Part shown: piece by piece, positions 10,112-45,561 of the stretch
Layout of the letters: each line of letters begins with the position of its first letter
How positions within the stretch are numbered: position 1 is the first letter of the stretch
DNA from: a virus
Lineage: Duplodnaviria > Caudoviricetes
Length of the DNA stretch: 49,174 nt
Virus record (IMG/VR): IMGVR_UViG_3300016665_000612
Span: 1-49,174 of that record
Strand: one strand, 5' to 3'
Made by a program: the position numbers and the translations under genes
Notes under the pieces: model-generated
The model's input: the letters and a program-made list of their open reading frames with translations, nothing else
Told to the model about the DNA's origin: nothing
Database searches by the model: none

Positions 10112-10182
10112 TCTGCCTCGAAAATAGTTGTTGACTCCAATAGCGAAATAGTTTAGTATGGTTTCACTGAGTGGGTGAAACC

Positions 10183-20530: not shown

Positions 20531-20880
20531 CTTTCATCTTACCGCCACCCCACACAGTTCCACCAAGATTTCTATTTCTCACCAGAACACCAACCACCGA
20601 GGAGTGGAAAAAGGTAATATCCGACACAAACTACTCCAAAGGAGTTTTGGTTGAGTTTAAATCACCAATCTATGGTTTTAAGCTTAAAAATAAAATAACA
20701 GATTATTTACCAACAGAAGACATTGGCACTCTTCTTGTGCCAAATCACTATTTGGCTGCTAGCCTCTTACCAGTAACGACTGTAGACATGGTAACAGGAA
20801 AAACCACTTCCACTTTTGCATACACCATTTTGGCAAATAGCCAAGTCTATGTGGTTGATCTGCCTCAAGTTTATACTTGA
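20527..20880 (+). CDS. hypothetical protein (paralog of the previous gene)
   Basis: ATGA overlap; shared C-terminal motif. Confidence 0.6.
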   Translation: MTFILPPPHTVPPRFLFLTRTPTTEEWKKVISDTNYSKGVLVEFKSPIYGFKLKNKITDYLPTEDIGTLLVPNHYLAASLLPVTTVDMVTGKTTSTFAYTILANSQVYVVDLPQVYT

Positions 20881-20927
20881 TTGAAATACGGTTGATTTTT
20901 TGCGGATATGGTATATACTCTCACTCT

Positions 20928-22007
20928 ATGAGTGATTGGCTAGTACATCTAATTCAAGTTGGCCCAATGGGGAAGCATCCAAATGCTGACTCTCTTTCCA
21001 TTACCCAGGTTTACGGGCAGAACATTGTTTGCCGCACAGATTCCTTTAAGGAAGGGGATCTTGCGGTTTTCATCCCACCTGATTCTGTCATGCCAGCAGA
21101 CAAAGATCATGTGATCTATAAAGACAATCCTGGTTTGAAGTTGGGACAGTGCATTGATGCTGTTCGGCTTCGTGGTATTTTTTCCAATGGTTTCATGGTT
21201 CCTGCTTCTGTGTTTTTTACAGAAGCAGAACTGAAAGACATTCCAATTGGGACACACGTTGCTGAACGAATTGGCATTACCAAGTATCAGGATAATGGCG
21301 ACCTTCTTTCCACTCGTGGAGATAATGAGCGCGATCCTGGTTACATGCCAACATACACGGACATTGAAGGTTGGCCCAAGAATCGCTTCTACATTCAAGA
21401 AGGTGAACAAGTAGTTCTGACTGAGAAGATTCATGGAGCCAATGCTCGATTCTGTTATCGTGATGATCGCCTGTGGGTTGGTTCCAGAACAGGAATCAAG
21501 GCGCAAGGTATTCGTGCTGATGGCACAGAAACAAACATGTGGTGGAGTGTTGCAAAAAACATAAACCTTGCAGACAAGTTTAAACAGCTTCAACTTCAAC
21601 CAACAGTTGATGGCGTTCCAACTTGGGATCTGGCTCTTTACGGTGAGGTATACGGTCAGGTTCAGGATCTCAAGTATGGTGTTTCCAGTGGTGCTCAATT
21701 CCGTCTGTTTGATGTTTACAGCCCCTCTCTGGGCCGTTATGTCGATTGGGATGTGGTTGTGAGGGTTGCAGCCATCATGGGTTTGGACATCGTTCCTGAG
21801 CTCTACAGAGGCCCCTGGAAGGCAGAACTTGAGGGGATGAGGAACGGACCTTCCATGCTCTATCCAGGTCACACAAGAGAGGGTTTTGTGATCAAGCCTG
21901 TGATCGAACAAGAAGTGCTGTACAACCCCGAGAAACGTTCTTCTTTTTACGGTCGAACAATTTTCAAAATGATCGGGGAAGACTACAAACTTCGCAAACG
22001 TAAATGA
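20928..22007 (+). CDS. RNA ligase, DRB0094/Rnl5 family
   Basis: N-terminal OB-like HPNADSL...LRGIFS.G; TEKIHGAN, YGEVYG, FRLFDV, REGFVIK, IFKMI. Confidence 0.85.
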   Translation: MSDWLVHLIQVGPMGKHPNADSLSITQVYGQNIVCRTDSFKEGDLAVFIPPDSVMPADKDHVIYKDNPGLKLGQCIDAVRLRGIFSNGFMVPASVFFTEAELKDIPIGTHVAERIGITKYQDNGDLLSTRGDNERDPGYMPTYTDIEGWPKNRFYIQEGEQVVLTEKIHGANARFCYRDDRLWVGSRTGIKAQGIRADGTETNMWWSVAKNINLADKFKQLQLQPTVDGVPTWDLALYGEVYGQVQDLKYGVSSGAQFRLFDVYSPSLGRYVDWDVVVRVAAIMGLDIVPELYRGPWKAELEGMRNGPSMLYPGHTREGFVIKPVIEQEVLYNPEKRSSFYGRTIFKMIGEDYKLRKRK

Positions 22008-22034
22008 CAGGATCACCACTATCTAAGTAAGTGA

Positions 22035-22742
22035 GTGAAGATGTTTGATTGTGAAGGACTGAAGAAATCTCAAAATAGAGTTGGAGTTTACTGCATATTC
22101 AACACCAATAATGGTAGGCGATATGTTGGCAGCTCCAACAATCTTTGGCGTCGATTCACAGAACATCGTAGACATCTGAAAAAAGGCATTCACAGCAATC
22201 GTTTTTTGCAGAACGACCATGCTAAATCTGGCCCTGATGTCTTTATCTTCTTTATTATCCAAGAATGTTCAAAAGAAACTCGAATTGCCCAGGAGCAAAA
22301 GTGGTTAAATTCTGTATGGGATAATAAACAACTCTGTTACAACTTGGACTCTACTGCTGGAGCTCGTACTGGATGGATGCCATCAGAGGAGACTAAAGAG
22401 CGAATGAGTGCTGCGAAAAAAGGCAAACCTACTGGTCCATGTTCGGATACTCGCAGAGAAGCTATTCGGGAAGCAAAGCTTGGAAAATCGCATTTATTTA
22501 GTGTTGGTGGCAAACAGAAAATGGTGGAATCCAAGCAAAAGACCTATGATGTTCAATTGCTAGCGCCATCTGGTGTAGTGTATGGGCCGATTGTAAATCT
22601 TCATGCTTTCTGCCGAGAGCAAAGACTTGATAGGGCTAGTGTTCTTAGAGTAATCAAAGGGGTCCAAGGTCATGTAAATGGGTGGAGACTCATCTCTGAC
22701 AAATATGTTGGCGAGGATTACAAAACCAGAAAGAAAAAGTAA
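22035..22742 (+). CDS. GIY-YIG homing endonuclease (Seg-like, NUMOD3-type tail)
   Basis: GVYCIFN...YVGSS...RRF.EH; SEETKERMS repeat-like segment; HTH-like C-terminus. Confidence 0.9.
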   Translation: MKMFDCEGLKKSQNRVGVYCIFNTNNGRRYVGSSNNLWRRFTEHRRHLKKGIHSNRFLQNDHAKSGPDVFIFFIIQECSKETRIAQEQKWLNSVWDNKQLCYNLDSTAGARTGWMPSEETKERMSAAKKGKPTGPCSDTRREAIREAKLGKSHLFSVGGKQKMVESKQKTYDVQLLAPSGVVYGPIVNLHAFCREQRLDRASVLRVIKGVQGHVNGWRLISDKYVGEDYKTRKKK

Positions 22743-31667: not shown

Positions 31668-31745
31668 GTCGCTGTATGCCGCCTGCCTTCTAAGCAGGAG
31701 AAAGCTAACTGGAATAACATGGGGGTTCGAGTCCCTTCAGCGATG
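31668..31745 (+). tRNA. D-arm-less, rearranged tRNA-Arg(TCT)
   Basis: GTCGCTG/CAGCGAT-G; CCTGC-CTTCTAA-GCAGG only 7 nt after the acceptor strand; D-loop-like GCTAACTGGAATA lies 3' of the anticodon arm. Confidence 0.65.
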
Positions 31746-31792
31746 CTAAAAATGTGGTTTCAACTGCTAATTGGAACATGTAGAACATACAT

Positions 31793-32269: not shown

Positions 32270-32341
32270 GGGTCCAAAGCTTTAATGGTGAAGCAACTGG
32301 CTCTTAACCAGAAGAACTCGGATCGTTACCGAGTGGACCCA
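32270..32341 (+). tRNA. tRNA-Lys(CTT)
   Basis: CTGG-CTCTTAA-CCAG; variant T-loop ATCGTTA. Confidence 0.8.
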
Positions 32342-32350
32342 CAACGTGAT

Positions 32351-32947: not shown

Positions 32948-33045
32948 GGGCATAACTCCTGTGACGGAATCGCCTCGCAGAAAGGAAGATCAGGAGTGGT
33001 AACTAGCGGCGATTAAAGTGGATTCGACTTCCACTGTGTCCACCA
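32948..33045 (+). ncRNA. tRNA-like minihelix with an internal pseudoknot
   Basis: GGGCATA/TGTGTCC-A-CCA, T-arm GTGGA-TTCGACT-TCCAC, crossing helices ACTCCTG/CAGGAGT and AATCGCC/GGCGATT. Confidence 0.55.
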
Positions 33046-33046
33046 T

Positions 33047-33119
33047 CAGAATATGGCGTAACCTGGCAGCGTCCCCCATTTGGAGTGGGGAGGTATAAGT
33101 TCAAATCTTATTATTCTGA
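33047..33119 (+). tRNA. tRNA-Pro(TGG)
   Basis: CCCCA-TTTGGAG-TGGGG. Confidence 0.85.
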
Positions 33120-33316
33120 CCGATGCCAACCTTAGTTGGCAAGGACTCTTCGGAGTCAGTGTCTAGGTTCCAAGCAACAAATCTAGTGAGGCACTTACAG
33201 TAACCCCACACTTCGTTTGTTGTGTTTAACCTAGAAAAATAATGCATAGATGCAACTAAATGCATTGCACCAACAGTTGCGATCTTTCGGTGGATGAAAA
33301 CTGCAAAACCGTATTT

Positions 33317-33419
33317 CGGTTTGGTGGTGTTAATTGGAAAGAAAACCCGGGAAACGCTTTCCATAGGCAACATGAAGGTATGAAAACCTTAGATTTGGGT
33401 TCGAGCCCCAGCCAACCGA
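33317..33419 (+). tRNA. atypical tRNA (Phe GAA-like) with a large D-loop hairpin insertion
   Basis: T-arm TTGGG-TTCGAGC-CCCAG; TGGAAAG...CTTTCCA hairpin in the D-loop; AAGGT-ATGAAA-ACCTT. Confidence 0.45.
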
Positions 33420-33542
33420 CCTTACAGTGAAAGACTTAGCACTGTCTAATCCCAGGAGTCACTCTTTGATTGGAATGCCGGTTGTTTCAAGAAAAGGGTA
33501 GAGTGCTAGGCTCGTAACACTCTATAATCCAACGAGCCGTGA

Positions 33543-33615
33543 GCCCCTTTAGCCATCTGGTGATGACGCTTGCCTTACAAGCAAGTTCAGGTGAGTTCGA
33601 TCCTCACAGGGGGTA
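33543..33615 (+). tRNA. tRNA-Val(TAC)
   Basis: CTTGC-CTTACAA-GCAAG. Confidence 0.85.
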
Positions 33616-33653
33616 CTGTAATAAAACAAGCTTAATTACCAAGTTAATATTAT

Positions 33654-34136
33654 ATGCAAGAACCAAAACCGCCCGTAATGCCAGTTGAGTTAGTTGTCCA
33701 ACCTGAAACAAAAGTTGTTGTTCTGGCACAAAAAATATTTTGCCTGGATGAACACATTAAGGACATAAAAGAATTCAACTACCAATATCGCAGATATAAT
33801 TTGATAGATGGTTGTACGTTTCATAACTTCGATTATGAAAACAACTTCTTTTCTCTTCAAGAGATTTTGAAGGCTTCTCAAGGTTTATCACCTGAGTTAA
33901 TTCGAATCTCTGGGGAAAGAGATAGAGAAGTTAGTTTTGTGATTGCTTCAATCGTTTATGAATCTCCATACTCCGAAGAAGAACTTACGGAGTTGAAAAA
34001 GAAAAACCTTGCTGCAAGAGCAAAATACGAAAAAGAATATGCTGCTTATCAAGCAGAACTGAAAAAGTTTGAAGCTGCAATGCTAAAAAAGCATATCAAA
34101 GAATTGCAAGAACGTCTTGAAAAGATGAAGAAATGA
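33654..34136 (+). CDS. hypothetical protein with C-terminal coiled coil
   Basis: 160 aa ORF. Confidence 0.65.
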   Translation: MQEPKPPVMPVELVVQPETKVVVLAQKIFCLDEHIKDIKEFNYQYRRYNLIDGCTFHNFDYENNFFSLQEILKASQGLSPELIRISGERDREVSFVIASIVYESPYSEEELTELKKKNLAARAKYEKEYAAYQAELKKFEAAMLKKHIKELQERLEKMKK

Positions 34137-34372
34137 ACAGTCTTTTAGAAGCAATGGTTTTCAGGATTATTCGAAAACAGTGTTGTCGTCCTGATTACTG
34201 TCACAGTTGCAATCAATACATTGATCCTGAGTGTTGCCACTGTGGAACAGAAAAGAACCATCATTACTACGAAGAGCACATGTTTGTTCCATCGGGTTGT
34301 CTTTGTGGGTATTCTGATCGTCGAGCAAACTGGTATTGTTACGAACACAACACTCGATGCAAAACCAGTTGA
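34133..34372 (+). CDS. Cys/His-rich zinc-binding protein
   Basis: Multiple CxxC pairs; ATGA overlap. Confidence 0.6.
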   Translation: MNSLLEAMVFRIIRKQCCRPDYCHSCNQYIDPECCHCGTEKNHHYYEEHMFVPSGCLCGYSDRRANWYCYEHNTRCKTS

Positions 34373-34406
34373 CAAGCTCAGAGAAACTTGGTAGAGTGTA
34401 AAAGTA

Positions 34407-34551
34407 ATCAGGCGGTGGGCTTAGAAGCAGCCATCCTTAATGAATACAGCAAGTGCCACGCAGGGTGCGAAAAGCAGTAGTATGGTAACAGTACAAGCTG
34501 TGATGTGCCAGTGGGAAACATGAGTTGTTTTGGCGTGATAGCGCACCTGAT
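34407..34551 (+). ncRNA. RNA resembling 23S rRNA helices 43-44 (uL11-binding GTPase-associated centre) with an internal expansion
   Basis: GGCTTAGAAGCAGCCATC.TTAA.GA ... GCGTGATAGCGCAC closed by ATCAGG/CCTGAT; directly after the promoter TTGACA (34369)-TAGAGT. Confidence 0.7.
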
Positions 34552-34558
34552 ATGAATT

Positions 34559-34630
34559 GGCTCTGTGGGCTAACGAAGTCGTCCGGCGTGGAGTCGGAAA
34601 ATGCAAGTTCGACGCTTGCTGGAGCCGCCA
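34559..34630 (+). tRNA. tRNA-Pro(TGG)-like, atypical
   Basis: GGCTCTG/TGGAGCC-G-CCA; TCCGG-CGTGGAG-TCGGA. Confidence 0.5.
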
Positions 34631-34637
34631 TCAACAA

Positions 34638-34913
34638 ATGGAAACACCTAAGACCCATGCAGGGTTGGTTTGGTTGTTGCGTTTGGTGATCACCTATCAA
34701 CTTGGGTTTTTAAATAAACTCCCCAGCCTAGCCCGCAGTCGCGGAGGATGTCTGGTGTAATCGCAAGATTTGAAGTTGAATGGGTAGTGGTGGCAGGGGC
34801 ACTATAAACCCCTCCAAACCAAGTTTAAAACTTACAACTATTTTGGCCACTTGGTTGGGGCAAAAAACAAAATGGTTGGACCATCAGCCAGAGTCGCTGC
34901 TCAGGGTGTTCAT
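34638..34913 (+). ncRNA. putative structured ncRNA (~275 nt)
   Basis: AACACCT/GGGTGTT closing helix; TAGTG/CACTA hairpin whose loop AGGGG can pair with downstream CCCCT. Confidence 0.5.
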
Positions 34914-34938
34914 GCGGTAAGATGGTAGCCGTATACAT

Positions 34939-35011
34939 GGGTCCGAAAGCTTTAGTGGATGAGCCTCGGTCTTTTAAACCGATGAAGAGGGATCGTTACC
35001 CTACGGACCCA
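34939..35011 (+). tRNA. tRNA-Lys(TTT)
   Basis: TCGGT-CTTTTAA-ACCGA; T-loop ATCGTTA. Confidence 0.8.
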
Positions 35012-35089
35012 CTAAGGGGCACAAAGTCAACTCCCCCATAAAACTGCGCACTTGACACATCGGAGAGACGGTGATAGTATAGTTTCAAT

Positions 35090-35161
35090 GGCTCTGAAGC
35101 TCAACGGTCGAGCGGCGGTTTGTTAAACCGATGGAAGTGGGTTCAACTCCCACCGGGGCCT
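35090..35161 (+). tRNA. tRNA-Asn(GTT)
   Basis: CGGT-TTGTTAA-ACCG. Confidence 0.8.
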
Positions 35162-35166
35162 CTAAT

Positions 35167-35254
35167 GAGTCGTGAGAGGCGGTGGTTCCGCACGGGGGCT
35201 CGTACATCCCCCAGCTCTTAGGAGTTTTAGGTTCGAATCCTTTCACACTCACCA
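35167..35254 (+). tRNA. atypical tRNA-Tyr(GTA)-like
   Basis: GGGGG-CTCGTACAT-CCCC (9-nt loop), long variable arm, T-arm, ACCA end. Confidence 0.45.
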
Positions 35255-35281
35255 ATCTCGATAACAAACAACAGGAATAAA

Positions 35282-35572
35282 ATGATCGCAGTTAAGTCGT
35301 TTGGTTTTGGCATCTATGCATACACCCTCTATCCTTTTGTGGAACTTGTCAAACAGTCCATGGGTAAAAACTGGCGAGGAATTGGCCCTCTTTTCTATCT
35401 CCTCTTTGCATGTGCAATGAACATTGCGCTTATGTTAAGCGGTGCCCTGACAGGATACGTTCTTGGAGAGAGCAAAATGGCTTATTGGGCGCTTGTTCCA
35501 GCGGTTGTGATTTCGCTCGCTTCTTCTCTGTTTGACTTCAAGATTGAAGTTGACACACCGGAAGAAGTCTGA
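35282..35572 (+). CDS. small membrane protein
   Basis: 2-3 hydrophobic segments; AGGA RBS. Confidence 0.65.
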   Translation: MIAVKSFGFGIYAYTLYPFVELVKQSMGKNWRGIGPLFYLLFACAMNIALMLSGALTGYVLGESKMAYWALVPAVVISLASSLFDFKIEVDTPEEV

Positions 35573-35612
35573 TAGTGTAAAGAAGTTGGTGAGACAACAA
35601 ACATCAACAAAT

Positions 35613-35685
35613 GGGCTTCTAGCTTAACGGTCAAAGCTCTCGCCTTTTAAGCGACAAGATCAGGGTTCGAATCCCTGGGGGCCTA
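35613..35685 (+). tRNA. tRNA-Lys(TTT)
   Basis: TCGC-CTTTTAA-GCGA; canonical T-arm. Confidence 0.85.
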
Positions 35686-35767
35686 CTAAAGACAGCCGGA
35701 TAGACGGCACATGGGTTCATAGCTCAACTGGCAGAGCATCATATTGATCTATCAACTACATATATAC

Positions 35768-36118
35768 ATGCAAAAATGTATTGAATGTGGCAAAGAATAT
35801 CAGTATGATAGAAAAAAGGGTCATCGTAAAAACTGGTGTAACAGTTGCATGGTCAACAAACGAAGAATGACCATAGACAAAAAGTGTTTGGAATACAAAG
35901 GTGGTAAATGTGAGTTGTGTGGGTATAGCAAATGCAAAAGGTCTTTGCAGTTTCATCACATAAAACCAGAAACAAAAACATTCCAAATATCTGGAAATTG
36001 GGGATTGAGTTGGGAAAAACTCAAAACAGAACTTGACAAATGCATACTAGTGTGTGCTAATTGTCACGGAGAAATACACGAGGGCTTGTGGCAGACTGGC
36101 AATGCAGCGGACTTTTAA
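35768..36118 (+). CDS. HNH endonuclease
   Basis: CELCGY...LQFHH..P..K...ELDKC.LVCANCHGEIH; stop TAA lies in the inner tRNA anticodon loop. Confidence 0.85.
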   Translation: MQKCIECGKEYQYDRKKGHRKNWCNSCMVNKRRMTIDKKCLEYKGGKCELCGYSKCKRSLQFHHIKPETKTFQISGNWGLSWEKLKTELDKCILVCANCHGEIHEGLWQTGNAADF

Positions 36119-36153
36119 TCCGAAAGATGATGGTTCAATTCCCTCCGAGCCCA
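36082..36153 (+). tRNA. tRNA-Lys(TTT), nested replacement copy
   Basis: GGGCTTG/CGAGCCC-A; CGGA-CTTTTAA-TCCG. Confidence 0.8.
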
Positions 36154-36280
36154 TTTTAAGCGGAAGCGTGGGGGATCGTTGCCCTCTGGACCTACCATTC
36201 AATCTTATATCAACAGAGGTGAGATAGTTGTGTACACACAACATGTAGGAAGTTGGATCGACTTTCTATAAACCTCCTAC

Positions 36281-36355
36281 GGTGCTGTAGCCCAACTGGT
36301 AGCAGGCAATGGTCTAAGAAGCCATTCAGTGCGAGTTCGAATCTCGCCAGCACCA
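36281..36355 (+). tRNA. tRNA-Leu(AAG), short variable loop
   Basis: ATGGT-CTAAGAA-GCCAT; A34; 5-nt variable loop. Confidence 0.8.
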
Positions 36356-36394
36356 CTTTTATGCCAGCGTGGCGAAATGGTAGACGCCGGAGAC

Positions 36395-36871
36395 TTACTT
36401 TTTCTTCTTGTTTCTACCACAATAAGTTGATGTTTGAGAATGACAATTAGGGCATAACAAACGCAGGTTACTTAAACTATTGTCGGTATTTTGACCATTG
36501 ATATGATCAAGATGCAATACAATTGGACCCCCTTGCCATGAAGAAAGTCCGCAAATAAAACAAGTATATGCAAAAATGCCTTCATCTATTAAACGTTTTT
36601 TAAGTCTATTAGATGATGTATAGCTTGCATCACCAGATAATATATCCGAAAGTTTAATATTACGATTCCAGTTATGTTTTTTGCCTTTAAGATGTCCTTG
36701 TCCCGTCCAATGTGTTGTGCTTATGGATAAGTTTTCTATGGCTTTTTTAATTGTTTTGTAATTTCCTCCTGCTGGTTTTAAACCAAGAACATTCAAAACG
36801 CCAGCAAGTGAATAACAACAAGAAACAGCAGAAATTAATTGTTTTGTTGTCCAGGTTTGTTTTTTAGGCAT
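36395..36871 (-). CDS. HNH endonuclease
   Basis: CFICG...LHLDHINGQNTDNSLSNLRLLCPNCHSQT; N-terminal HTH-like region. Confidence 0.9.
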   Translation of the reverse strand: MPKKQTWTTKQLISAVSCCYSLAGVLNVLGLKPAGGNYKTIKKAIENLSISTTHWTGQGHLKGKKHNWNRNIKLSDILSGDASYTSSNRLKKRLIDEGIFAYTCFICGLSSWQGGPIVLHLDHINGQNTDNSLSNLRLLCPNCHSQTSTYCGRNKKKK

Positions 36872-37000
36872 ACTTTATAGCAGAGTGTCATTTTTGACAT
36901 TACAAGTAAGTATGCCGTAAACGGTCACATAGCCCAATCGGCAGTAGGCAGGGAACTTAAAATTCCTAAAGTATGGGTTCGAATCCCATTGTGACTACAA
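36398..37000. mobile_element. HNH + replacement tRNA-Leu(TAA) cassette
   Basis: ~603-bp insert inside the anticodon, carrying an antisense HNH and an intact tRNA-Leu(TAA). Confidence 0.8.
36923..36997 (+). tRNA. tRNA-Leu(TAA), nested replacement copy, short variable loop
   Basis: GGTCACA/TGTGACT-A; GGGAA-CTTAAAA-TTCCT. Confidence 0.85.
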
Positions 37001-37087
37001 AAATCTCTTGACCCTTAGTGGTCGTATGGGTTCGACTCCCTTCGCTGGTACTGCTATAACAAAAAACCTTAACACAAATTAAGGAAA

Positions 37088-37417
37088 ATGATCTACGGTC
37101 TAAAAAACACATACGGTGAATCTTGGACGTTTTGTGACCCATCTAAAAGGTTTGCACCTTCCTATGGGCCTGTAAAGGAAAAGGCAATCTTTTCTATTTG
37201 CCTTGAGGAATACTTGCAGGAAGGCGATGGAAATTGCCCCTTCCCAGGCCCAGAGCACCCTTGGGAGTTTTACAAGGCAGAGACACAACAGGATCTCGAA
37301 GAGGGACGTGGTGAGCTAATCGCCAGCCTTCACAACGGTACGCCAGAAGCTCTCTGGGAGCTTTATCATTGGTGCCGCGGCGGCTGCGTAAAAGTGGGCG
37401 TTAGTCTGAGTTACTGA
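37088..37417 (+). CDS. hypothetical protein
   Basis: AAGGA RBS; 109 aa. Confidence 0.65.
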   Translation: MIYGLKNTYGESWTFCDPSKRFAPSYGPVKEKAIFSICLEEYLQEGDGNCPFPGPEHPWEFYKAETQQDLEEGRGELIASLHNGTPEALWELYHWCRGGCVKVGVSLSY

Positions 37418-37467
37418 AGAATGCGATTTTTCTTGCTGTTTTCTCAAACTCTTGATAAGATCAATCC

Positions 37468-38157
37468 ATGTCAAAGAATCATCGCAGTTTTACCACCGCA
37501 CTATCGCGTATCATTGTCAATCATATCAAGTATCACAGTTCTTCATTGATTCCCGAGATCCGTTTTGAGCAGGATGAATTGCTTGTGATCGCTACTGTTG
37601 TTGAGCGAACAACCGTAGCTCATGACGTTGGTGGAGTGAACAGTGCGACTTACAACTCGTTGTCGAAAACAATCCGAATTGAGTTGTCGGTTCCTCTAAA
37701 CATTAACTCTACTTGGTGGATGCCTTTCATTGCCAAGCTGAAAAAAGTAATTCGCCACGAATATGAGCACTATGTTCAACATAAACGCTCTGGTGACTTG
37801 TCCAGCGACGCACTAAAGCCACTATTGATTGTTAATGACAATTACAATGGCAAACCAACCAATAAGCCTTGGCTGAAGATCAGCGATGCTCTTAGATACT
37901 TGCTCAATCCTATTGAAGTTGAAGCTCACGTTATGGGAATCGCAGCAGTAGCAAAGTATCGCAAAATCAAGTTCAATGTTGTATTGAAGGAAGTTTTGAA
38001 AGACATTGAAGAGGAGCTATCTTATGACTTCAAAGATAGCCATATTCGATTCCTACTTCGTCGCGTTTACGAAACCTGGGGGTTCTATGCTCTCGCCCGG
38101 TTTCCTTCGTTGCGTGTCAAACGTCAACGGCGACTGATTGGATTCAATCGTCACTGA
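37468..38157 (+). CDS. putative zincin-like metallopeptidase (paralog of 30817..31584)
   Basis: VIRHEYEH..Q and YL.NPIEVEAHVM. Confidence 0.6.
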   Translation: MSKNHRSFTTALSRIIVNHIKYHSSSLIPEIRFEQDELLVIATVVERTTVAHDVGGVNSATYNSLSKTIRIELSVPLNINSTWWMPFIAKLKKVIRHEYEHYVQHKRSGDLSSDALKPLLIVNDNYNGKPTNKPWLKISDALRYLLNPIEVEAHVMGIAAVAKYRKIKFNVVLKEVLKDIEEELSYDFKDSHIRFLLRRVYETWGFYALARFPSLRVKRQRRLIGFNRH

Positions 38158-38226
38158 GAGCATAAACAGATTGCGTCAAGAAATCATTACCCTCTTGACG
38201 CAACCTCTGAATCTTGTTATATTAAT

Positions 38227-38302
38227 TGCGGGGTGGAGAAGGAGTAACTCGCTTGGCTCATAACCAAGAGATCGGTGTGTGCAAATCCACCCCCCGCTAC
38301 CA
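38227..38302 (+). tRNA. tRNA-Met(CAT), initiator-like
   Basis: 1:72 mismatch, GCGGGG acceptor, CTTGG-CTCATAA-CCAAG, CCA end. Confidence 0.7.
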
Positions 38303-38315
38303 AGTTTTTGTCAAA

Positions 38316-38397
38316 CCCTTTATGGACGTAATTGGAAACGTCATCCCCGTTTTTTCGAATGGGGAGAATTTGGGTTCGAATCCCTTTAGAGGGGTTG
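38316..38397 (+). tRNA. atypical tRNA with an extended anticodon arm
   Basis: D-arm GACG/CGTC, TCCCC-GTTTTTTCGAAT-GGGGA, T-loop TTCGAAT. Confidence 0.4.
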
Positions 38398-38480
38398 ATG
38401 AAAACTTGCATGGCTGGCCCAACTTGCTGCGCAGCAAGGTAAGCTAAGGCCCTTGCATACGGCGAGATAGTATGCTAAAT

Positions 38481-38567
38481 GGAAGATCGGTGCAGTTGGA
38501 GAGGCACACTGGCCTGGAAAGTCAGCCTCGGGAAACCGAGGAGAGAGTTCGAATCTCTCATCTTCCG
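38481..38567 (+). tRNA. tRNA-Ser(GGA)
   Basis: CTGGC-CTGGAAA-GTCAG; long variable arm; G73. Confidence 0.85.
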
Positions 38568-38572
38568 CAAAC

Positions 38573-38965
38573 ATGAACAAAAACAATTTTCAATACATGA
38601 AATTCCCTATTGCAAAACACAAAAGGGTTTCTGCGATTTCTGTTCAAAGATACAACCACGAAAACATTCGTTTTCGTTTCAATGGAAAGCCATGGATTTT
38701 TGACCCGATCATGGGTCGGGGATATCCTGTCAAGAAAAGGTATGGATTCGTTTTTGATTCTTTTGTTGCTACTACATGCACCATTACAAACCTGTTTTGG
38801 GGCATCAATTATGGGATAACTGGATATTTTCATAGAGGAACCTATCAGCCCAAAAAAGATAAGATTCTTGTGGATCATCGCTTTGTTGGGAAACTTATCA
38901 AGCGACTTCGTAAACGAGGGCTGTGTGTAAAGGTTCTCGATTCTGACACTTACGTTGTGACGTGA
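38573..38965 (+). CDS. hypothetical basic protein
   Basis: 130 aa ORF. Confidence 0.55.
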   Translation: MNKNNFQYMKFPIAKHKRVSAISVQRYNHENIRFRFNGKPWIFDPIMGRGYPVKKRYGFVFDSFVATTCTITNLFWGINYGITGYFHRGTYQPKKDKILVDHRFVGKLIKRLRKRGLCVKVLDSDTYVVT

Positions 38966-39008
38966 AAACGCTTTACAAACTCGATCTACTCTGCTAGAGT
39001 GGATTCAT

Positions 39009-39094
39009 GGGTAAGTAACTCAACGGTAGAGTAAGAGCCGCACCCCAAAACAGGGTTAGAGTTCTTGATGCTGGTTCAATTCCAGCCTTACCCA
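39009..39094 (+). tRNA. tRNA-like RNA with a 22-nt structured anticodon loop
   Basis: Perfect acceptor, D and T arms; AGAGC-[CGC ACCC CAAAACA GGGT TAGA]-GTTCT. Confidence 0.6.
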
Positions 39095-39192
39095 CCCGCG
39101 CTCTCTAATCAAGGGATAGTTGGAGAAGGTAACTCCAATGATGAACCAAGGTGATTCTTGGAAAAGAAACCCAAGGATGAGTGATGTCCCAG

Positions 39193-39387
39193 TAAGCAAC
39201 GGCTGTAAATCATTGTTGAGGGAAAATTAAGTTGCTGTTGATCTTAACAATGTAAGTTGCAAACATTAGATATTTGTTTAATGGAATCGGAGACTAATAT
39301 ATATTAAATTTGCCTTGGTTCTGAAAAGAACACCTCCTGATGCGTTGAGCAAGTTCTATGGTCCTGAGCAAGACTAGAAACTGCTTA
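39193..39387 (+). ncRNA. structured ncRNA, copy 2 of the motif at 18959..19187
   Basis: AATGGAATCG...CTGATGCGTTG...GGTCCTGAGCAAGACTAGAAACTGCT. Confidence 0.55.
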
Positions 39388-39404
39388 TTTTGCTAAATTT
39401 TCTG

Positions 39405-39690
39405 CATGGTTGCTGGTAATCCAAAACCAGAGATATGGTGTTTGTAGGTCGCAAGGAAGACCAGCCCTAGATATGGGGTGCCATTTGGCCACGGCTAGCT
39501 TGGAGCATTACCAAGAAACACCACCAACAACACTGGCTGTTAACAGCCTAGTATCGCACGGGGAAGCGTCCAACAAGTTACTTGTTGGGCAACTTGATAG
39601 TCAGTCGTTAAGAGGGCTATCAGGGCATCTTGGGGAGAGTTACCCCAAGGGGTAACAAGTTTCAAGTTAAAACCAACACACGCCGTGGAA
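39405..39690 (+). ncRNA. putative structured ncRNA
   Basis: Series of hairpins (GGCTGT/ACAGCC, CCAACAAG/CTTGTTGG, TGATAGTC/GGCTATCA, CTTGGGG/CCCCAAG); no credible ORF. Confidence 0.4.
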
Positions 39691-39772
39691 CTCTTGTTAG
39701 TGTTGTGAAAAAAGTGCTATGAAACTATACGTTATTATCAGAAATAACATATACAAGGCAACCTGAGCAAAC

Positions 39773-40054
39773 ATGACAAAAACTTCTATAACCATTTCAT
39801 CCCAGCACTGTGAACGTGCATGTGTTATGGCAATCAAAAGACACACTTCTCTTCTTGAGAAAGCATGGGATGCGGCAATTGAACAAGAAATGACAAAAAA
39901 GCCATGGCTTTGGTTTTTTGATAAACCTTCAAAAACAAAAGAAGAAGCCAAAAAGGTTATTTTGGAAAATAACCCTTACTTTGGTTTTTTTATACAAGGT
40001 CAATGGCACACATCCATGAGATTTTGGAAATGTGTTCCCATTCAGATGAAATAA
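39773..40054 (+). CDS. hypothetical protein (possible frameshift near the 3' end)
   Basis: 93 aa ORF; an alternative frame continues to 40098. Confidence 0.5.
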   Translation: MTKTSITISSQHCERACVMAIKRHTSLLEKAWDAAIEQEMTKKPWLWFFDKPSKTKEEAKKVILENNPYFGFFIQGQWHTSMRFWKCVPIQMK

Positions 40055-40117
40055 CCATTTCCAAAAAAGATTTCAAACTGATCAAAAACTTCCTATAATA
40101 ACGCTGTTTATCTTCAA

Positions 40118-40189
40118 GGCCCTATCATCTAGTGGTTAGGATAAGAGGCTTTCAATCTCTTTACCAGGGTTCGAGTCCCTGTAGGGTCG
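40118..40189 (+). tRNA. tRNA-Glu(TTC)
   Basis: AGAGG-CTTTCAA-TCTCT. Confidence 0.9.
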
Positions 40190-40234
40190 CAAAATTATAT
40201 TGACTGCAAACTAACAGTCAGGTATATTACATCC

Positions 40235-41053
40235 ATGTCGCTAGAAGTAATCCGAGCAGAAATCGACTACATCCGTTCCATTGCCATCAACCCGGAGAAA
40301 CCAGATCTTTTTGATTTTTTTGGTTTGAAGTTGAAAATGCTTGAGGAGCGTCAAGCACTGTTCAGTGGTGTTTCTGGAAAGAATAACTTTCAAACCAGTG
40401 CAACCAAGCAATATCTTCTTGCTTGCGTGTTTCGTCATCCCGGTCTATCACGGCAAGAGTTGAAGGAGTTAGCAGGTATTCCTGGTTCTCCGCGTCGTAG
40501 TGAAACCGATGTGTTTCGGGACTACCTCCATGCACTTCGTGGCGACATCTACATTGATGAGCACGGAAAGTGTTGGCCCCGAAACGGTTTGGAACTGCCT
40601 GTTGCTCGCATTGGGACGGTGGTTCTGGACGGCCGGGTTACGGAGACGATGAAGAAGGCGTTGGTGTTTCTCCGAGACAATCCTGGGGCCACTGAGGCTG
40701 TTTTGCACAAGGCGTTGCGCATCAAAGATGCTGCTGCCCGCAGACGACTTCGTGTTTCTCTGCGAGACAAAGTTGATATTGGCCAAAACGGCCAGATGTT
40801 TGTAAAGGGGTATATTCCGCCAAGCATTTCTGTTACAATGCCTGCGAAAACGTTTGTCAGCATTGAAGATCAGACGCTTGCTGCGATCATGGATCATATG
40901 GAGTTCAAAGTTCTTTATGATTGGTCGGAGCTTGTTGGTGTCTATCGAGAGCTTGGATTCTCTTCCAAGGATGGCTACGAACACCTTTCTCGCATGGTTT
41001 CAAAGGGTTTGATTGGAACAAAACAACGAAAGTTTTACCGAGTTCATTCATGA
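40235..41053 (+). CDS. hypothetical protein, possible repeated winged-HTH domains
   Basis: HPGLSRQELKE and NPGATEAVLHKAL helical repeats; leaderless promoter. Confidence 0.6.
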   Translation: MSLEVIRAEIDYIRSIAINPEKPDLFDFFGLKLKMLEERQALFSGVSGKNNFQTSATKQYLLACVFRHPGLSRQELKELAGIPGSPRRSETDVFRDYLHALRGDIYIDEHGKCWPRNGLELPVARIGTVVLDGRVTETMKKALVFLRDNPGATEAVLHKALRIKDAAARRRLRVSLRDKVDIGQNGQMFVKGYIPPSISVTMPAKTFVSIEDQTLAAIMDHMEFKVLYDWSELVGVYRELGFSSKDGYEHLSRMVSKGLIGTKQRKFYRVHS

Positions 41054-41541
41054 ATATTTTTGCTCTTGACATAGATCCCGAACAAGCTGCAAAGTGGCAT
41101 TGCGATGCTCATGTGATCGTAATGCCCAAAGAAGCTGCACAGATGCTTTCCACGATTCATAGAATCGCTGGGCATCATGGCAGTTTTTACCAAGCAACTC
41201 ACCGCAACCATCCTTGCACCCTGTGGGCAAGGTCTAGCAGGGAAAACTATCTTTGGCTTTGGCGACTTGGATACTTTCTTTGTCAAGAATATACTTTGCG
41301 TTATGGCAAAGAACACAGATCACAGGCTGTACTTTCTCAGGTAAGGAACATCCCGGATATTGTTCCAAGTGGCAGACTGACAAAGTTTCCACTTGTCATG
41401 CCTGATGCCTACAAAGATTCAAATCCCATTCATGCTTACCGGAAGTTCTACCGGGGCGAAAAACGCAATGGCCGTCTAGGCACTTGGAAGCTCAACAAGC
41501 CCTATTGGTGGGATACGACACTCACTCAGTTCTGGCTTTGA
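41050..41541 (+). CDS. pyrimidine-dimer DNA glycosylase family (DenV-like) protein
   Basis: MNIFALD.DP..AA..HCD.HV..M..E.AQML, TH.NHPC..W, EY..RYGK.H, AYR.FY. Confidence 0.8.
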   Translation: MNIFALDIDPEQAAKWHCDAHVIVMPKEAAQMLSTIHRIAGHHGSFYQATHRNHPCTLWARSSRENYLWLWRLGYFLCQEYTLRYGKEHRSQAVLSQVRNIPDIVPSGRLTKFPLVMPDAYKDSNPIHAYRKFYRGEKRNGRLGTWKLNKPYWWDTTLTQFWL

Positions 41542-42008
41542 CCACGAGGCTTGTACTCAACCTGATAAGGGTTCCAGATGACAATTTCAGTCAGCGTTCC
41601 ATTGAAATACTGAAAAATTGCATCATGGCCTTTAGCTAGGGCAAGCTTTTTAAGCTGGGTGCCAACATAGCCGTACTTCTCTTCTTCTTTTTCAACAATC
41701 CTTATGGCTTTTTCCTCTTGAACCCCAAGAGCGACTAAAGCTTTTATTACTGGATGTTGTTTGTCGCCACTTTCAATCTTCAAAGGATTGCGCACACGAA
41801 GTCTTGTTTGAACAAGAATGCCACCTGATTCTTTGGCATATCTTTCTGCAACATTTTTAATTGGTGTGAAGTAGGCTCCCGCACCCAATGCTCCACGACC
41901 ATTCACTTTGATAGGCTTAATTCCGTCCCAAGAACCACCATGGTAAACTGGAGAGATGTTGAAGTCCTGATCGCTTTCCAGTAAAAGGCTGTAAAGACTA
42001 AATTTCAT
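41526..42008 (-). CDS. ADP-ribosyltransferase-like (ART-PolyVal-type) protein
   Basis: VYHG...G.GAYFT....AERYA...NPL...GHDAI...EIVIWNP.QV; TACTTA upstream. Confidence 0.6.
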   Translation of the reverse strand: MKFSLYSLLLESDQDFNISPVYHGGSWDGIKPIKVNGRGALGAGAYFTPIKNVAERYAKESGGILVQTRLRVRNPLKIESGDKQHPVIKALVALGVQEEKAIRIVEKEEEKYGYVGTQLKKLALAKGHDAIFQYFNGTLTEIVIWNPYQVEYKPRGQSQN

Positions 42009-42118
42009 GTAAGTAAGTATAATTTTCAATAGTTCTTTGTAAACTTTTTGTCCGAAATGTATTTACTTCTACAAACCCCCATGCTAGTATTAGCAAAGCA
42101 ACCAAACAGGAGAATTTT

Positions 42119-42601
42119 CTGAAAACACGAAAGAATGAGCAAATCAGAGCCTATCAAGTAAGTCTAATTTCCGCAGAAGGAAAGCTGCTTGGAAATTTTT
42201 CACGCAGAGATGCGTTGGAAATGGCTCGGGATGAAGGACTAGATCTGGTTGAGGTAAACCCCAATTCCAACCCGCCAGTTTGCAAGCTAGCCGACTATGG
42301 TAGAATGATGTATAATCTGAACAAGAACAAGAAGCCTGTTCAGAAGTCGGAACTGAAAACAATTCAATTGCGCCCTGGAATCGGGGAAAATGATCTTGAT
42401 GTCAAAATCAGGAAAATTGAAGAGTTTTTGACGGACAAACACAAAGTGTGTTTGACGATGAAGTTTCGTGGTCGAGAGATTGCTCACCAAGATTTGGGTC
42501 TGAAAGTTCTTGAGCAAGTTGTCGCTGCTCTTGGAAACAAGTACAAAAATGTGAGCAAACCAAGTCTGAGCAACAAAGTCATCACCATGATGATCGAGTG
42601 A
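42119..42601 (+). CDS. infC: translation initiation factor IF-3
   Basis: NEQIRA..V.LI..EG..LG, GLDLVEV...PPVCKLADYG, K.IQLRP.I...D...K, MKFRGRE; AGGAG RBS then CTG start. Confidence 0.9.
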   Translation: MKTRKNEQIRAYQVSLISAEGKLLGNFSRRDALEMARDEGLDLVEVNPNSNPPVCKLADYGRMMYNLNKNKKPVQKSELKTIQLRPGIGENDLDVKIRKIEEFLTDKHKVCLTMKFRGREIAHQDLGLKVLEQVVAALGNKYKNVSKPSLSNKVITMMIE

Positions 42602-42645
42602 AATACGCTGTGGACATTGGTTCTAATTGCTGATATAACAGAACC

Positions 42646-42897
42646 ATGAGCACACAGAATTCTTGGGAGTTCGACACTGATCCTAACGAAGTCATCCCTG
42701 TTGGTTTCATCTACGATGAAAATGTCAGGGTTGTTGGCTTCTGTAGTCCGAGGGGTCCAGGCATTCGCAAGATGGCAGTAAAGATTGCATACCCCAACTG
42801 TGTTGGGGATTATAGCACTACAATCAGTTATATGACTGTGCTGCGAAAGTACATCCTCTCACTATCTCACATGGAGTTCGTGAACAAGTTTGGTTGA
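42646..42897 (+). CDS. hypothetical protein (leaderless)
   Basis: TGGACA-17 nt-TATAAC then ATG; flanked by 34-bp repeats. Confidence 0.6.
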   Translation: MSTQNSWEFDTDPNEVIPVGFIYDENVRVVGFCSPRGPGIRKMAVKIAYPNCVGDYSTTISYMTVLRKYILSLSHMEFVNKFG

Positions 42898-42982
42898 AAA
42901 CTTTAGCAACTCAGTCATCACCATGATGACTGAGTGAAGTTTTCACTTCCCAAAACCAACGAGATATGCTATCTTCTTTCAC

Positions 42983-43147
42983 ATGGAAGATGAAGCATCT
43001 CGTTGGTGGCTGGTTAATGTTTATGATGCGAAAAGCAGAACCTATACCGAACTAAACAGGTTTGGTATCTTGGATGACATCATTGAAGATTTAGAGTCTG
43101 AAGGGCTTTGGCAGTTCGTTTCAGCAGAAGAAGAGGAGAATCAATAG
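42983..43147 (+). CDS. small acidic hypothetical protein (54 aa, below the ORF-track cutoff)
   Basis: MEDEASRWWLVNVYD...; stop 1 nt before the next ATG. Confidence 0.5.
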   Translation: MEDEASRWWLVNVYDAKSRTYTELNRFGILDDIIEDLESEGLWQFVSAEEEENQ

Positions 43148-43148
43148 C

Positions 43149-43460
43149 ATGTCTGCTAAGAAACAGTTAGTTAGATCTGCTTTTCGTGGTGTTGTCTTCA
43201 TGAGAGACAAGAATAGATGCCGAGTTTGTGGGCACCTAGAAAGCCCACTAGACGCTCATCACATCACAGACAGGAACTTGATGCCTGGAGGTGGTTATGT
43301 GGCAGAAAACGGTATCTCTCTGTGTCCTGAATGCCATCAGAAAGCCGAAGTGTTCCATCAAACAGGAATTGCCATGCCCGGTTGGCATCCCGACGACTTG
43401 TATCAGTTGATTGGATCAAGTTACGAGAAAGCATTCAAGGCATCACAGAAACTAAGTTGA
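43149..43460 (+). CDS. HNH endonuclease (free-standing)
   Basis: RD...CRVCG...LDAHHI...NGISLCPECH. Confidence 0.85.
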   Translation: MSAKKQLVRSAFRGVVFMRDKNRCRVCGHLESPLDAHHITDRNLMPGGGYVAENGISLCPECHQKAEVFHQTGIAMPGWHPDDLYQLIGSSYEKAFKASQKLS

Positions 43461-43491
43461 CAACCAAAACAACTTGCGGTAAGGTAAAACA

Positions 43492-43662
43492 ATGAACCTC
43501 TCGACAAAACAGTACGATTACAAAGCTGGCCGTTGGAACAGTGGTTACTTTGCTGCACCCAAGGCTCCTCTCTGGTTCAACATTCTTTTTTCGTTCCTCT
43601 GTTTGAGTTTTGTGTTTGGCATTGGATATGGTGCTTTTGCTCTTATGAAAATGTTTCGGTGA
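43492..43662 (+). CDS. small membrane protein (56 aa)
   Basis: ATG after a TTGACA promoter; hydrophobic C-terminal half. Confidence 0.45.
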   Translation: MNLSTKQYDYKAGRWNSGYFAAPKAPLWFNILFSFLCLSFVFGIGYGAFALMKMFR

Positions 43663-43787
43663 AGAAACTGGTTGACAACGAAAGAAGAAAGCAGTAAGAT
43701 AGTTACAGATCAACGGTCCCATACACTAACGGTTTAGGTGACTACCCTCTCAAGGTGAAATGAAGGTTAGAGTGCATACTTAATTGC

Positions 43788-44207
43788 ATGAGATGCAACA
43801 AGTGTGATCAAGAGAAGTCTGAAACAGATTTTGCAGCTTCGAAAAAATACGGAAAACAACCTTGGTGTCGTCAATGCCAGAAGAAAAGTCACAAAGCATA
43901 CTACCAAAAGAACAAACAGCACTTCATCGAGTATAAAGAATCAGTCAAACGACAAAGGCAAAAACAGCTACTAACTTACATGCAGGAGCAAGGTTGTAAG
44001 GACTGTGGCATCAAAGACCCACTTGTTTTGGAATTTGATCACATTGATCCAGAAACAAAAATAGAAAGTGTTTGCAAACTGTTGCAAAAAGGCCGAAAAA
44101 TGGAAACGATTTTGGCAGAAGTGGCAAAATGTGAAGTGAGATGCTGTAACTGTCATCGTAGAAGAACCATCCAGCAATTTGGATGGTATCGTGCTCGCAT
44201 AGATTAA
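43788..44207 (+). CDS. HNH endonuclease
   Basis: N-terminal CxxC..CxxC; CKDCG...LEFDHIDP..K...EVAKCEVRCCNCH; last codons overlap the inner tRNA. Confidence 0.85.
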   Translation: MRCNKCDQEKSETDFAASKKYGKQPWCRQCQKKSHKAYYQKNKQHFIEYKESVKRQRQKQLLTYMQEQGCKDCGIKDPLVLEFDHIDPETKIESVCKLLQKGRKMETILAEVAKCEVRCCNCHRRRTIQQFGWYRARID

Positions 44208-44269
44208 CTGGCTAAATCACCTGATTCTCAATCAGGTAAGTCCGGGTTCGAGTCCCGGTGCGAGTGCCA
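44193..44269 (+). tRNA. tRNA-Glu(CTC), nested replacement copy
   Basis: GCTCGCA/TGCGAGT-G-CCA; CCTGA-TTCTCAA-TCAGG. Confidence 0.9.
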
Positions 44270-44343
44270 ACACTGGCGGGTTCAAATCCCCCTGGGATCA
44301 TATTATCGAGTTTTAGTGACTAACATAAAGCTCAAAAACTCAC

Positions 44344-44417
44344 GTCCTCGTCGTCTAATTGGATAAGGCACCGTCCTTCTAAGTCGGTTATTGCAGGTTC
44401 GAGTCCTGCCGGGGATG
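44344..44417 (+). tRNA. tRNA-Arg(TCT)
   Basis: CCGTC-CTTCTAA-GTCGG; canonical D and T arms. Confidence 0.85.
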
Positions 44418-44554
44418 CTATGATTGTCTGCATGTGATATCTTTGGGGTCACTGAGTTGGAAAGGCTTGGCAATCATTCCAAGGTCGCTGGAGGTAATAG
44501 CCAGTCACTCTACCCAAGAGGGGTGTAGCTCAGTCAGAGCGTGGAAACTTTCCC

Positions 44555-44577
44555 TTAACTTAACTTAACTTAACTTA
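44555..44577 (+). repeat. (TTAAC)x4 microsatellite
   Basis: TTAACTTAACTTAACTTAACTTA. Confidence 0.7.
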
Positions 44578-44644
44578 TCTTACCTTGTTTTGTGTTAGTT
44601 TAATATATCAGGTAACAGTCACAGGCGCCTGTGACATAGTTACC

Positions 44645-45151
44645 ATCCCCTTAACTCACCAGATTAGAGTGCCACGCTTCGAACGTGGAAAAAAAGTTCG
44701 AAACATCATAATTAGATGTGTGAATTTAACAAAAACGTGTTCTCGTTGCCATAACGAATTTGAACTAAGCAAGTTCGCTATTAATCGGACTCGTTCTGAC
44801 GGACTAAATTCTAATTGTAAGTTGTGTCAAAAAGAATACCATAAAAAGCATTACCAAAATAACAAGAATTATTATGTTCAAAAAGCTCGTTATCACACTT
44901 CAAAACTTGAACAGTGGGTGAGAGAATTTAAACAAAAACCTTGTGCAGATTGCGGAAAAGAATATCCGTATTATGTGATGCAATTTGATCATCTTTCAGA
45001 TAAAGAATTTGTGCTTGCTAAAGCAAGGCTCTTTAGCAAAAAGAAAATATTAGAAGAAATTCACAAATGTGAAGTGGTTTGCGCAAATTGTCATGCGGAA
45101 CGAACACATAAAAGACGCCAGATACAATAGGTTCGATTCCTATAGGGGATA
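44645..45151 (+). pseudogene. split tRNA-Arg(TCG): 5' part 44645..~44690, 3' part ~45127..45151
   Basis: ATCCCCT/AGGGGAT-A; CCACG-CTTCGAA-CGTGG; T-arm ATAGG-TTCGATT-CCTAT after the HNH. Confidence 0.8.
44720..45130 (+). CDS. HNH endonuclease inserted in the tRNA-Arg(TCG) variable loop
   Basis: CSRC...CKLC; CADCG...MQFDHL...EIHKCEVVCANCHAERT; GTG start inferred; stop TAG lies in the T-stem. Confidence 0.85.
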   Translation: MNLTKTCSRCHNEFELSKFAINRTRSDGLNSNCKLCQKEYHKKHYQNNKNYYVQKARYHTSKLEQWVREFKQKPCADCGKEYPYYVMQFDHLSDKEFVLAKARLFSKKKILEEIHKCEVVCANCHAERTHKRRQIQ

Positions 45152-45153
45152 CT

Positions 45154-45561
45154 ATGGCTGTAATCTGCTTACAAGAAACTGATAGATTTGATTATTCACT
45201 TTCCAAATCTCACCAAAACAGTTTGATAATCCAGTATATTCTTGGAGTGATTTGGGACTATAGTTGGAGAATCAACTTTTCGCCTTCAGAAAGTCAAGAT
45301 AGAAAAATTGCTTCTTGGATACTAGGCTCAGACCAAAAATGGCTAGAAACTGCTCTTGAACTCCTCATGAAAGGAGTTGATATAAATAGCATTATTCTCA
45401 ACTCGCCTTCTATTCAGAAATATGGGGGTTTTTTCACACCTCTAGCTACACACTGTGAAAATCGACTGTTTGTTGTAAAAAACAGGTTTCTAGAGTTCAT
45501 TACTTTGAAGTTTGACTATCAAACAGATACAGCAAGTTTCGTGATTAATAAAGCGTATTAA
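45154..45561 (+). CDS. hypothetical protein
   Basis: 135 aa ORF. Confidence 0.55.
   Translation: MAVICLQETDRFDYSLSKSHQNSLIIQYILGVIWDYSWRINFSPSESQDRKIASWILGSDQKWLETALELLMKGVDINSIILNSPSIQKYGGFFTPLATHCENRLFVVKNRFLEFITLKFDYQTDTASFVINKAY

Follow-up and report, generated by a model that had tools for sequence, protein, structure and literature searches.

HNH endonuclease genes coupled to complete tRNA genes and nested within tRNA genes of the same anticodon in a large Caudoviricetes phage: a probable form of intronless homing

The window analyzed here, a stretch of 49,174 nucleotides of the Caudoviricetes virus record IMGVR_UViG_3300016665_000612, represents part of a large phage genome, carries 41 tRNA genes (ARAGORN) and has a freshwater sample as its best-matching sequencing run. 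Three tRNA genes in it, for Lys(TTT), Leu(TAA) and Glu(CTC), are each interrupted by an insert made up of an HNH endonuclease gene and a complete tRNA gene (415, 603 and 517 base pairs (bp), respectively). This architecture is real, recurrent and recently mobile. The nested inserts are best explained, with a probability of about 0.7 judged from sequence comparison, by intronless homing of HNH–tRNA units, the nesting arising when such a unit is patched into a cut. The order of 5' half, HNH gene, inner tRNA and 3' half that had been proposed in the initial annotation was found at all three sites after small corrections of coordinates, and the parts are as follows.

35713–35738, plus strand: outer tRNA-Lys(TTT) 5' part, positions 1–26, with the junction set by the unbroken allele of metagenome run X2 (see below).
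35768–36118, plus strand: HNH endonuclease 1 (HNH1), 116 amino acids, phrog_2255; the last 37 bases lie within the inner tRNA, and the stop codon lies in its anticodon loop.
36082–36153, plus strand: inner complete tRNA-Lys(TTT); ARAGORN 105.5, Rfam 57.1 bits.
36154–36197, plus strand: outer tRNA-Lys 3' part, from position 33 to the CCA end; the 415-bp insert takes the place of positions 27–32.
36363–36396, plus strand: outer tRNA-Leu(TAA) 5' part, to U34.
36395–36871, minus strand: HNH endonuclease 2 (HNH2), 158 amino acids, phrog_10822, antisense; its stop codon takes bases of the outer anticodon loop.
36923–36999, plus strand: inner complete tRNA-Leu(TAA) with a short 5-nucleotide variable loop; ARAGORN 112.9, Rfam 60.4 bits.
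37000–37050, plus strand: outer tRNA-Leu 3' part which includes a long variable arm; no base was lost where the 603-bp insert entered, at U34/A35, and the rejoined score is 115.8.
43715–43756, plus strand: outer tRNA-Glu(CTC) 5' part, through the anticodon loop and three stem bases.
43757–43775, plus strand: start of the Glu insert, similar to the variable loop and T arm found in a different tRNA; the best match to tRNAs of the window is only 14/22.
43788–44207, plus strand: HNH endonuclease 3 (HNH3), 139 amino acids, phrog_2255; stop codon inside the D arm of the inner tRNA.
44193–44269, plus strand: inner complete tRNA-Glu(CTC); ARAGORN 125.8, Rfam 64.3 bits.
44274–44300, plus strand: outer tRNA-Glu 3' part; five resident bases are replaced by the 517-bp insert.

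The acceptor strands of the outer halves pair in 7/7 positions within each gene and in 2–6/7 when swapped between genes. The rejoined outer tRNA-Leu was recognized by ARAGORN with a score of 115.8 (TAA) and no base added, while the rejoined Lys (TTT) and Glu (CTC) genes reached 111.0 and 110.7 after restoration of six and five bases, respectively, from the unbroken alleles of run X2; the halves thus re-pair as had been claimed. A classifier that ignores the anticodon arm (62% accurate, leave-one-locus-out) typed them as Lys, Leu and Glu. The inner tRNAs share the outer anticodon and, in line with the divergent bodies described earlier, are 52–62% identical to the outer genes (identical columns: Lys 47/76; Leu about 45/87, which is approximate, the join being one base short; Glu 47/80), with longest common runs of 7, 12 and 7 bases, respectively. 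In tRNA-Leu(TAA), the variable region is a 5-base loop in the inner gene and a long arm in the outer one. The tRNA-like start of the Glu insert is possibly the scar of an earlier host gene of this element.

A motif scan revealed no group I "R" or P4 core motif in any insert, an Rfam scan of the window returned tRNAs only and no intron, and neither an integrase gene nor a duplicated attachment-site (att) core was found in the inserts, which contain the HNH gene and the tRNA alone; the initial description of inserts of 0.4–0.6 kilobases (kb) without a group I core or integrase therefore stands. Exact removal of the insert restores the tRNA for Leu only. Since six resident bases of Lys and five of Glu are gone, splicing is unable to restore these two genes, and the view that the outer halves are not spliced as introns holds for them, whereas removal of the Leu insert would restore a tRNA. 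A promoter scan around the Lys and Leu inserts gave four matches against 3.6 expected, which is the chance level.

A fourth HNH insert, absent from the text of the initial annotation, splits tRNA-Arg(TCG) at 44645–45151 and has no inner tRNA.

44645–44688, plus strand: tRNA-Arg(TCG) 5' part.
44720–45130, plus strand: HNH endonuclease 4 (HNH4), about 136 amino acids with an inferred GTG start, phrog_2255, whose stop codon falls within the T stem of the outer 3' part.
45119–45151, plus strand: tRNA-Arg(TCG) 3' part, left edge approximate; best rejoined scores 113–114.

Comparable inserts occur in cultured phages, although the complete nested form was found in none of the 12 cultured-phage loci. 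In phage phiSA12 (locus L245), an HNH2 relative replaces nine bases of tRNA-Trp (positions 34–42, anticodon included) with 514 bases, whereas phage K (L256), with which it forms a Kayvirus pair, has that tRNA-Trp whole between identical flanks of 206 and 241 bases. In Bacillus phage Anthony (L251, 693–1265), a tRNA-Asp-like gene is split by an HNH1 relative and is unannotated in the record.

Unbroken alleles and recent movement were traced in four of the 15 listed metagenome runs (X1, X2, X3 and X6), used as contigs with a likeness of at least 85%, of which the longest pieces and some joints were listed. In X1, one unitig (33000–44562, depth 35) covers all three nested inserts; this run is possibly the source sample, so that its unitig speaks against chimerism and is not independent. 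The Lys and Glu cassettes also recur in runs of other studies, and an assembly chimera was rejected, as the initial annotation required. In X2, which belongs to another freshwater study and whose listed pieces are 96–100% alike to the window, one contig joins 35738 to 36154 with six other letters (depth 7), and a second joins 43756 to 44274 with five other letters (depth 3.8). These contigs bypass the Lys and Glu inserts, and both genes are therefore unbroken there. The X2 Lys contig extends 393 bases into HNH2 with no differences; thus, the Leu site is occupied in X2. An RNA-library contig of X3 bridges the Glu site too, weakly, with 27 letters on the short side. Empty alleles, which had been expected in relatives, were accordingly recovered for Lys and Glu and not for Leu; no unbroken Arg allele was seen among the joints listed. 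Because a close relative holds two of the genes unbroken, the inserts likely spread by replacing the gene that they break and not by splicing out.

A non-standard T loop, starting with A and not T, is common to the Lys tRNA genes at 34939–35012, 32270–32342 and 36154–36197. Decay of the outer Lys T loop was considered and rejected, the unbroken allele having the same odd loop (no differences).

In the wastewater run X6, the cassette pieces differ from the window in 8/442 bases (35755–36196), 22/636 bases (43660–44295) and 3/508 bases (44647–45154); the Lys, Glu and Arg cassettes are therefore 96.5–99.4% identical, as against 84–86% in neighbouring backbone pieces of those contigs, which differ in 28/173 and 30/218 bases. 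X3 carries the same three cassette pieces. Near-identical cassettes in a diverged backbone are what would be expected of recent lateral transfer. The Glu and Arg tracts of X6 end at, or slightly past, the outer tRNA ends, which would fit co-conversion through the dead halves. Close genomes were recovered neither with HNH3 in viral contigs nor with two backbone proteins in metagenome contigs.

Relatives of the four nucleases were collected from IMG/VR as 243 loci (all three matches for HNH4 and the best 80 of 176, 605 and 575 matches for the others). They were picked by likeness to the HNHs of the window and not deduplicated (L120 and L122 are near twins), so the rates given here are not genome-wide. 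Split tRNAs were sought with a detector trained on 914 intact tRNAs at a threshold of 30 bits; the ARAGORN intron mode, which produced many false pairings of intact tRNAs, was excluded from the counts. Halves of a tRNA flank the HNH gene in 21 of the 243 loci (19 at 40 bits), compared with one in reversed-order decoys and a mean of at most 0.4 in cross-locus decoys. Nine of these 21 have group I core motifs and no inner tRNA (10 with a relaxed motif), and eight have an inner tRNA found by ARAGORN and no core motif; in L213 the inner tRNA, Val(TAC), was detected by Rfam alone, and L059 is a tRNA stub with a whole gene. The HNH stop codon lies inside the next tRNA in 58 of 205 distinct kin and within 15 bases of it in 28 more; thus, the common unit is the HNH gene plus tRNA, with full nesting as the minority state. 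Partner tRNAs vary with the family: HNH1 kin adjoin Asn(GTT), HNH2 kin adjoin Leu(TAA) and Gln(TTG), and HNH3 kin have mixed partners. Lys is hence an atypical partner of HNH1 in the window, which suggests that this nuclease may have switched its target.

HNH-encoding group I-type introns in anticodon loops of phage long-arm (Leu-like) tRNAs were observed at L097, L098, L111, L120, L122, L130, L133, L144, L147 and L153, all of which belong to the HNH family of the Leu cassette (10 of the 80 HNH2 relatives). Some of the core motifs used were general group I motifs and others came from L097 and L130, and the Rfam group I model RF00028 gave a below-threshold match (E = 8 × 10−4) in L097 only, among 18 loci searched. 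These introns bear on the possibility that the cassettes are degenerate mobile group I introns, in which the HNH gene would have arrived within an intron, the core would have been lost and a rescue tRNA would have been captured later. Such an origin is plausible mainly for Leu, whose insert occupies the L097 site without loss of a base and whose HNH gene is antisense, as it is in L097. However, the Lys and Glu inserts lie off intron sites and have removed resident bases, no core remnant is present in any insert, and HNH2 groups with free-standing Leu(TAA)-adjacent genes and not with intron-borne ones, with weak support (83, unstarred), in a quick tree (76 of 81 rows) that is mostly unresolved. 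We regard a degenerate intron as quite unlikely.

The agreement between outer and inner tRNAs in the relatives exceeds chance, as the initial annotation had anticipated for the anticodon. The isotype, called with a nearest-neighbour classifier blind to the anticodon arm and 62% accurate, agrees in seven of eight nested relatives (permutation p = 5 × 10−4; p = 3 × 10−5 against the adjacency background, in which 17.5% of 800 adjacent tRNA pairs share the isotype). A partner tRNA accompanies 27 distinct 5' stubs, and the 18 stubs that have U33 were counted as readable; among these, the anticodon of stub and partner matches exactly in seven (background 6.1%, p = 5 × 10−5, with none of 100,000 permutations reaching seven). 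Ectopic recombination of same-kind tRNA genes through short common motifs, with the adjoining HNH gene as a passenger or cutting elsewhere, would likewise lead to same-anticodon nesting. In its favour, same-isotype tRNAs cluster somewhat (17.5% of neighbours) and the Glu insert opens with a tRNA-like scar right behind the anticodon loop. The outer/inner common runs, however, are just 7–12 bases long, and the three cassettes seen in X6 moved recently between diverged phages when the adjacent pieces did not. Moreover, HNH inserts without a spare tRNA exist in anticodon loops (phiSA12) and point to the nuclease. Recombination of this kind is considered rather improbable.

HNH1, HNH3 and HNH4 (Lys, Glu and Arg inserts) match phrog_2255 and HNH2 (Leu) matches phrog_10822, with E-values of 3 × 10−27 to 9 × 10−50, in accordance with the earlier observation of two HNH subfamilies in both orientations. 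All four open reading frames (ORFs) are intact and keep the (D/H)H and CxNCH motifs. No GIY-YIG domain was found in the cassette nucleases, all of which belong to HNH families, and a sequence search of the PDB gave only a weak match to Hpy99I (E = 0.32). The guanine-plus-cytosine content of the HNH genes is 33–39%, against 43–48% in three neighbouring genes, a further sign of lateral transfer. By family, the nucleases belong to the homing endonucleases located outside introns and inteins, and cutting activity is likely. The two HNH families and the changing partner tRNAs favour the repeated independent origin suggested at first, while the tree is too poorly resolved for origins to be counted. 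A fifth HNH gene (PF01844, above the cut-off) is located at 43149–43460, with no tRNA halves noticed around it.

Under intronless homing, the HNH gene and the adjoining complete tRNA, which overlap in Lys and Glu, would travel as one selfish unit. The nuclease would nick or cut in or close to the anticodon arm of its target, namely, the intact tRNA gene of that kind carried by a co-infecting phage; the unit would then be copied into the break. The starting point may have been a free-standing HNH gene next to a version of its target that is divergent and poorly cut, as is usual in intronless homing. In a phage without flanking homology, the unit would be patched into the cut by short-homology repair, giving the nested layout; the dead outer halves could later provide the homology arms when the unit homes between closely related phages, and would decay afterwards. 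The inner gene diverges from the outer one and would be a candidate for resistance to its own nuclease. The spare tRNA would soften the cost, and might also throttle the nuclease because tRNA maturation would clip the nuclease mRNA; it would be a helpful passenger and not a requirement.

Several observations weigh against this explanation or narrow it. The proposal that the spare tRNA cancels the cost of insertion is weakened: no spare lies within the Arg, phiSA12 and Anthony inserts or in the HNH-split tRNA of L172, the window has two further Lys(TTT) genes that are intact and no more than 1.2 kb away, and no other Arg tRNA with TCG or ACG was found in the window, which is a partial genome. 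Compensation is thus not obligatory. Complete nesting was found in only about nine of the 243 relatives. Eleven of the 18 readable stubs have no exact match, several of them breaking inside the anticodon by eye, L093 and L087 look truly discordant by eye, and the nine stubs without U33 were left out of the count. HNH1 kin flank mostly Asn(GTT) and not Lys (44 counts). The bridge over the Glu site in X2 has a low depth, and no unbroken Leu allele was found either among the joints listed or by an outer-Leu pattern search of viral contigs. Finally, segB co-localizes with tRNAs with no isotype preference, according to PMC13096335.

A further explanation is adaptation at the level of the phage, in which the incoming tRNA would evade a host tRNA nuclease or suit the host and the HNH would be a domesticated delivery tool. 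SegB amplifies tRNA-Tyr and thereby defeats the Septu defence (PMC13096335), and the Leu swap trades a body with a long variable arm for one with a short loop. Against it, the destruction of tRNA genes without a spare represents spread without benefit, and such adaptation would be an addition to homing and no replacement for it; as an explanation in its own right, it is very unlikely.

Among known systems, integrase-borne elements at tRNA genes restore tRNA 3' ends. They resemble the cassettes in being inserted in a tRNA gene with its function restored, whereas here there is no integrase and no att duplication (common runs of 7–12 bases), the inserts are 0.4–0.6 kb long and the whole gene is replaced. 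In Allomyces, a free-standing homing endonuclease reportedly brings a replacement end for atp6. Partial C-terminal duplications are described beside homing endonuclease ORFs in fungal mitochondrial atp6 and cob (PMC6279837). There, as in the window, the element mends the broken gene with a foreign version and the displaced native piece stays; in contrast, only the gene tail is replaced, giving a hybrid, and here a whole tRNA is carried and both halves remain. Mobile group I introns with an encoded endonuclease (PMC3984707) also place this gene within a tRNA gene at or near the anticodon, and HNH2 relatives are found in such inserts; unlike them, the cassettes have no ribozyme core, the resident gene is dead and a second gene supplies the function. 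HNH genes have been named core genes of tRNA clusters (PMC6409571). The closest likeness is to SegB of T4 and T6, a free-standing nuclease of a phage tRNA cluster that cuts inside tRNA genes and homes together with neighbouring tRNAs, and whose ORF end is tied to the maturation of the next tRNA, by which its mRNA is proposed to be clipped (PMC2330249). SegB, however, is a GIY-YIG enzyme that recognizes a common T-arm motif, has its gene in the space between tRNA genes and exchanges about 1.25 kb as a block (PMC2330249), whereas the HNH genes of the window are located inside tRNA genes, both halves of which remain, and are accompanied by a single tRNA with the matching anticodon. The architecture may therefore be viewed as free-standing, SegB-like intronless homing in a new form. 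In the open-access literature, searched mostly by title and abstract, no description came up of an HNH gene that lies, together with a tRNA of matching anticodon, inside a split tRNA gene, and this layout was not met in the available portions of PMC10448857, PMC8346664, PMC1524935, PMC12386605 and PMC12619734.

Other features of the window were also recorded. At 20877–22742, a GIY-YIG gene (PF01541) comes after an RNA ligase gene (PF09414) and ends in a second, diverged copy of the ligase C-terminal tail; this has the look of a gene tail replaced by a free-standing homing endonuclease, the break-and-replace principle applied to a protein gene. Two tRNA-like elements were seen by eye and missed by ARAGORN and Rfam: an oddly wired one at 31672–31748, in which an Arg(TCT) anticodon arm is followed by a D-like segment and the T arm is good, and one at 35168–35254 with unusual arms and a CCA end. 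Long tRNA-like hairpins with a TCA-containing loop (selenocysteine-like in shape by eye), followed by a tRNA 5' stub and a 5-base tandem repeat, occupy 44440–44575 and have a strain variant in run X1. The tRNA region also encodes translation initiation factor IF3 (42215–42601) and an ART-PolyVal ADP-ribosyltransferase-like gene (41526–42029). Four tandem paralogous ORFs with a common N-terminal motif lie at 8803–11974, the first with no Pfam match at an E-value of 0.001; we presume that they resemble class II glutamine amidotransferases.

The window contributes four events within 9.4 kb, two of which are seen in both allele states, together with a test of concordance and a split between introns and spare tRNAs within one HNH family. 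As both allele states are known for two inserts, the targets of these small nucleases (116–158 amino acids) can be predicted with an uncertainty of a few bases; for the form without a spare, phiSA12 and phage K provide a model in culture. More tentatively, and with less than even confidence, HNH–tRNA fusions could be widespread, undescribed mobile elements of large phages that replace splicing with a spare gene, compete with group I introns for anticodon-loop sites, switch targets readily and act as a main driver of the exchange of tRNA bodies within phage populations, including that of a long-arm for a short-arm Leu, feeding variants to selection by host tRNA-cutting defences. If intronless homing is the correct explanation, it would constitute a route, additional to introns and inteins, by which a selfish nuclease takes up residence in a conserved gene, namely, by destroying it and bringing a whole spare. 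It would also account for the duplicates, stubs and mosaic order of phage tRNA arrays and would connect homing with turnover among the phage tRNAs directed against host defences that cut tRNAs.

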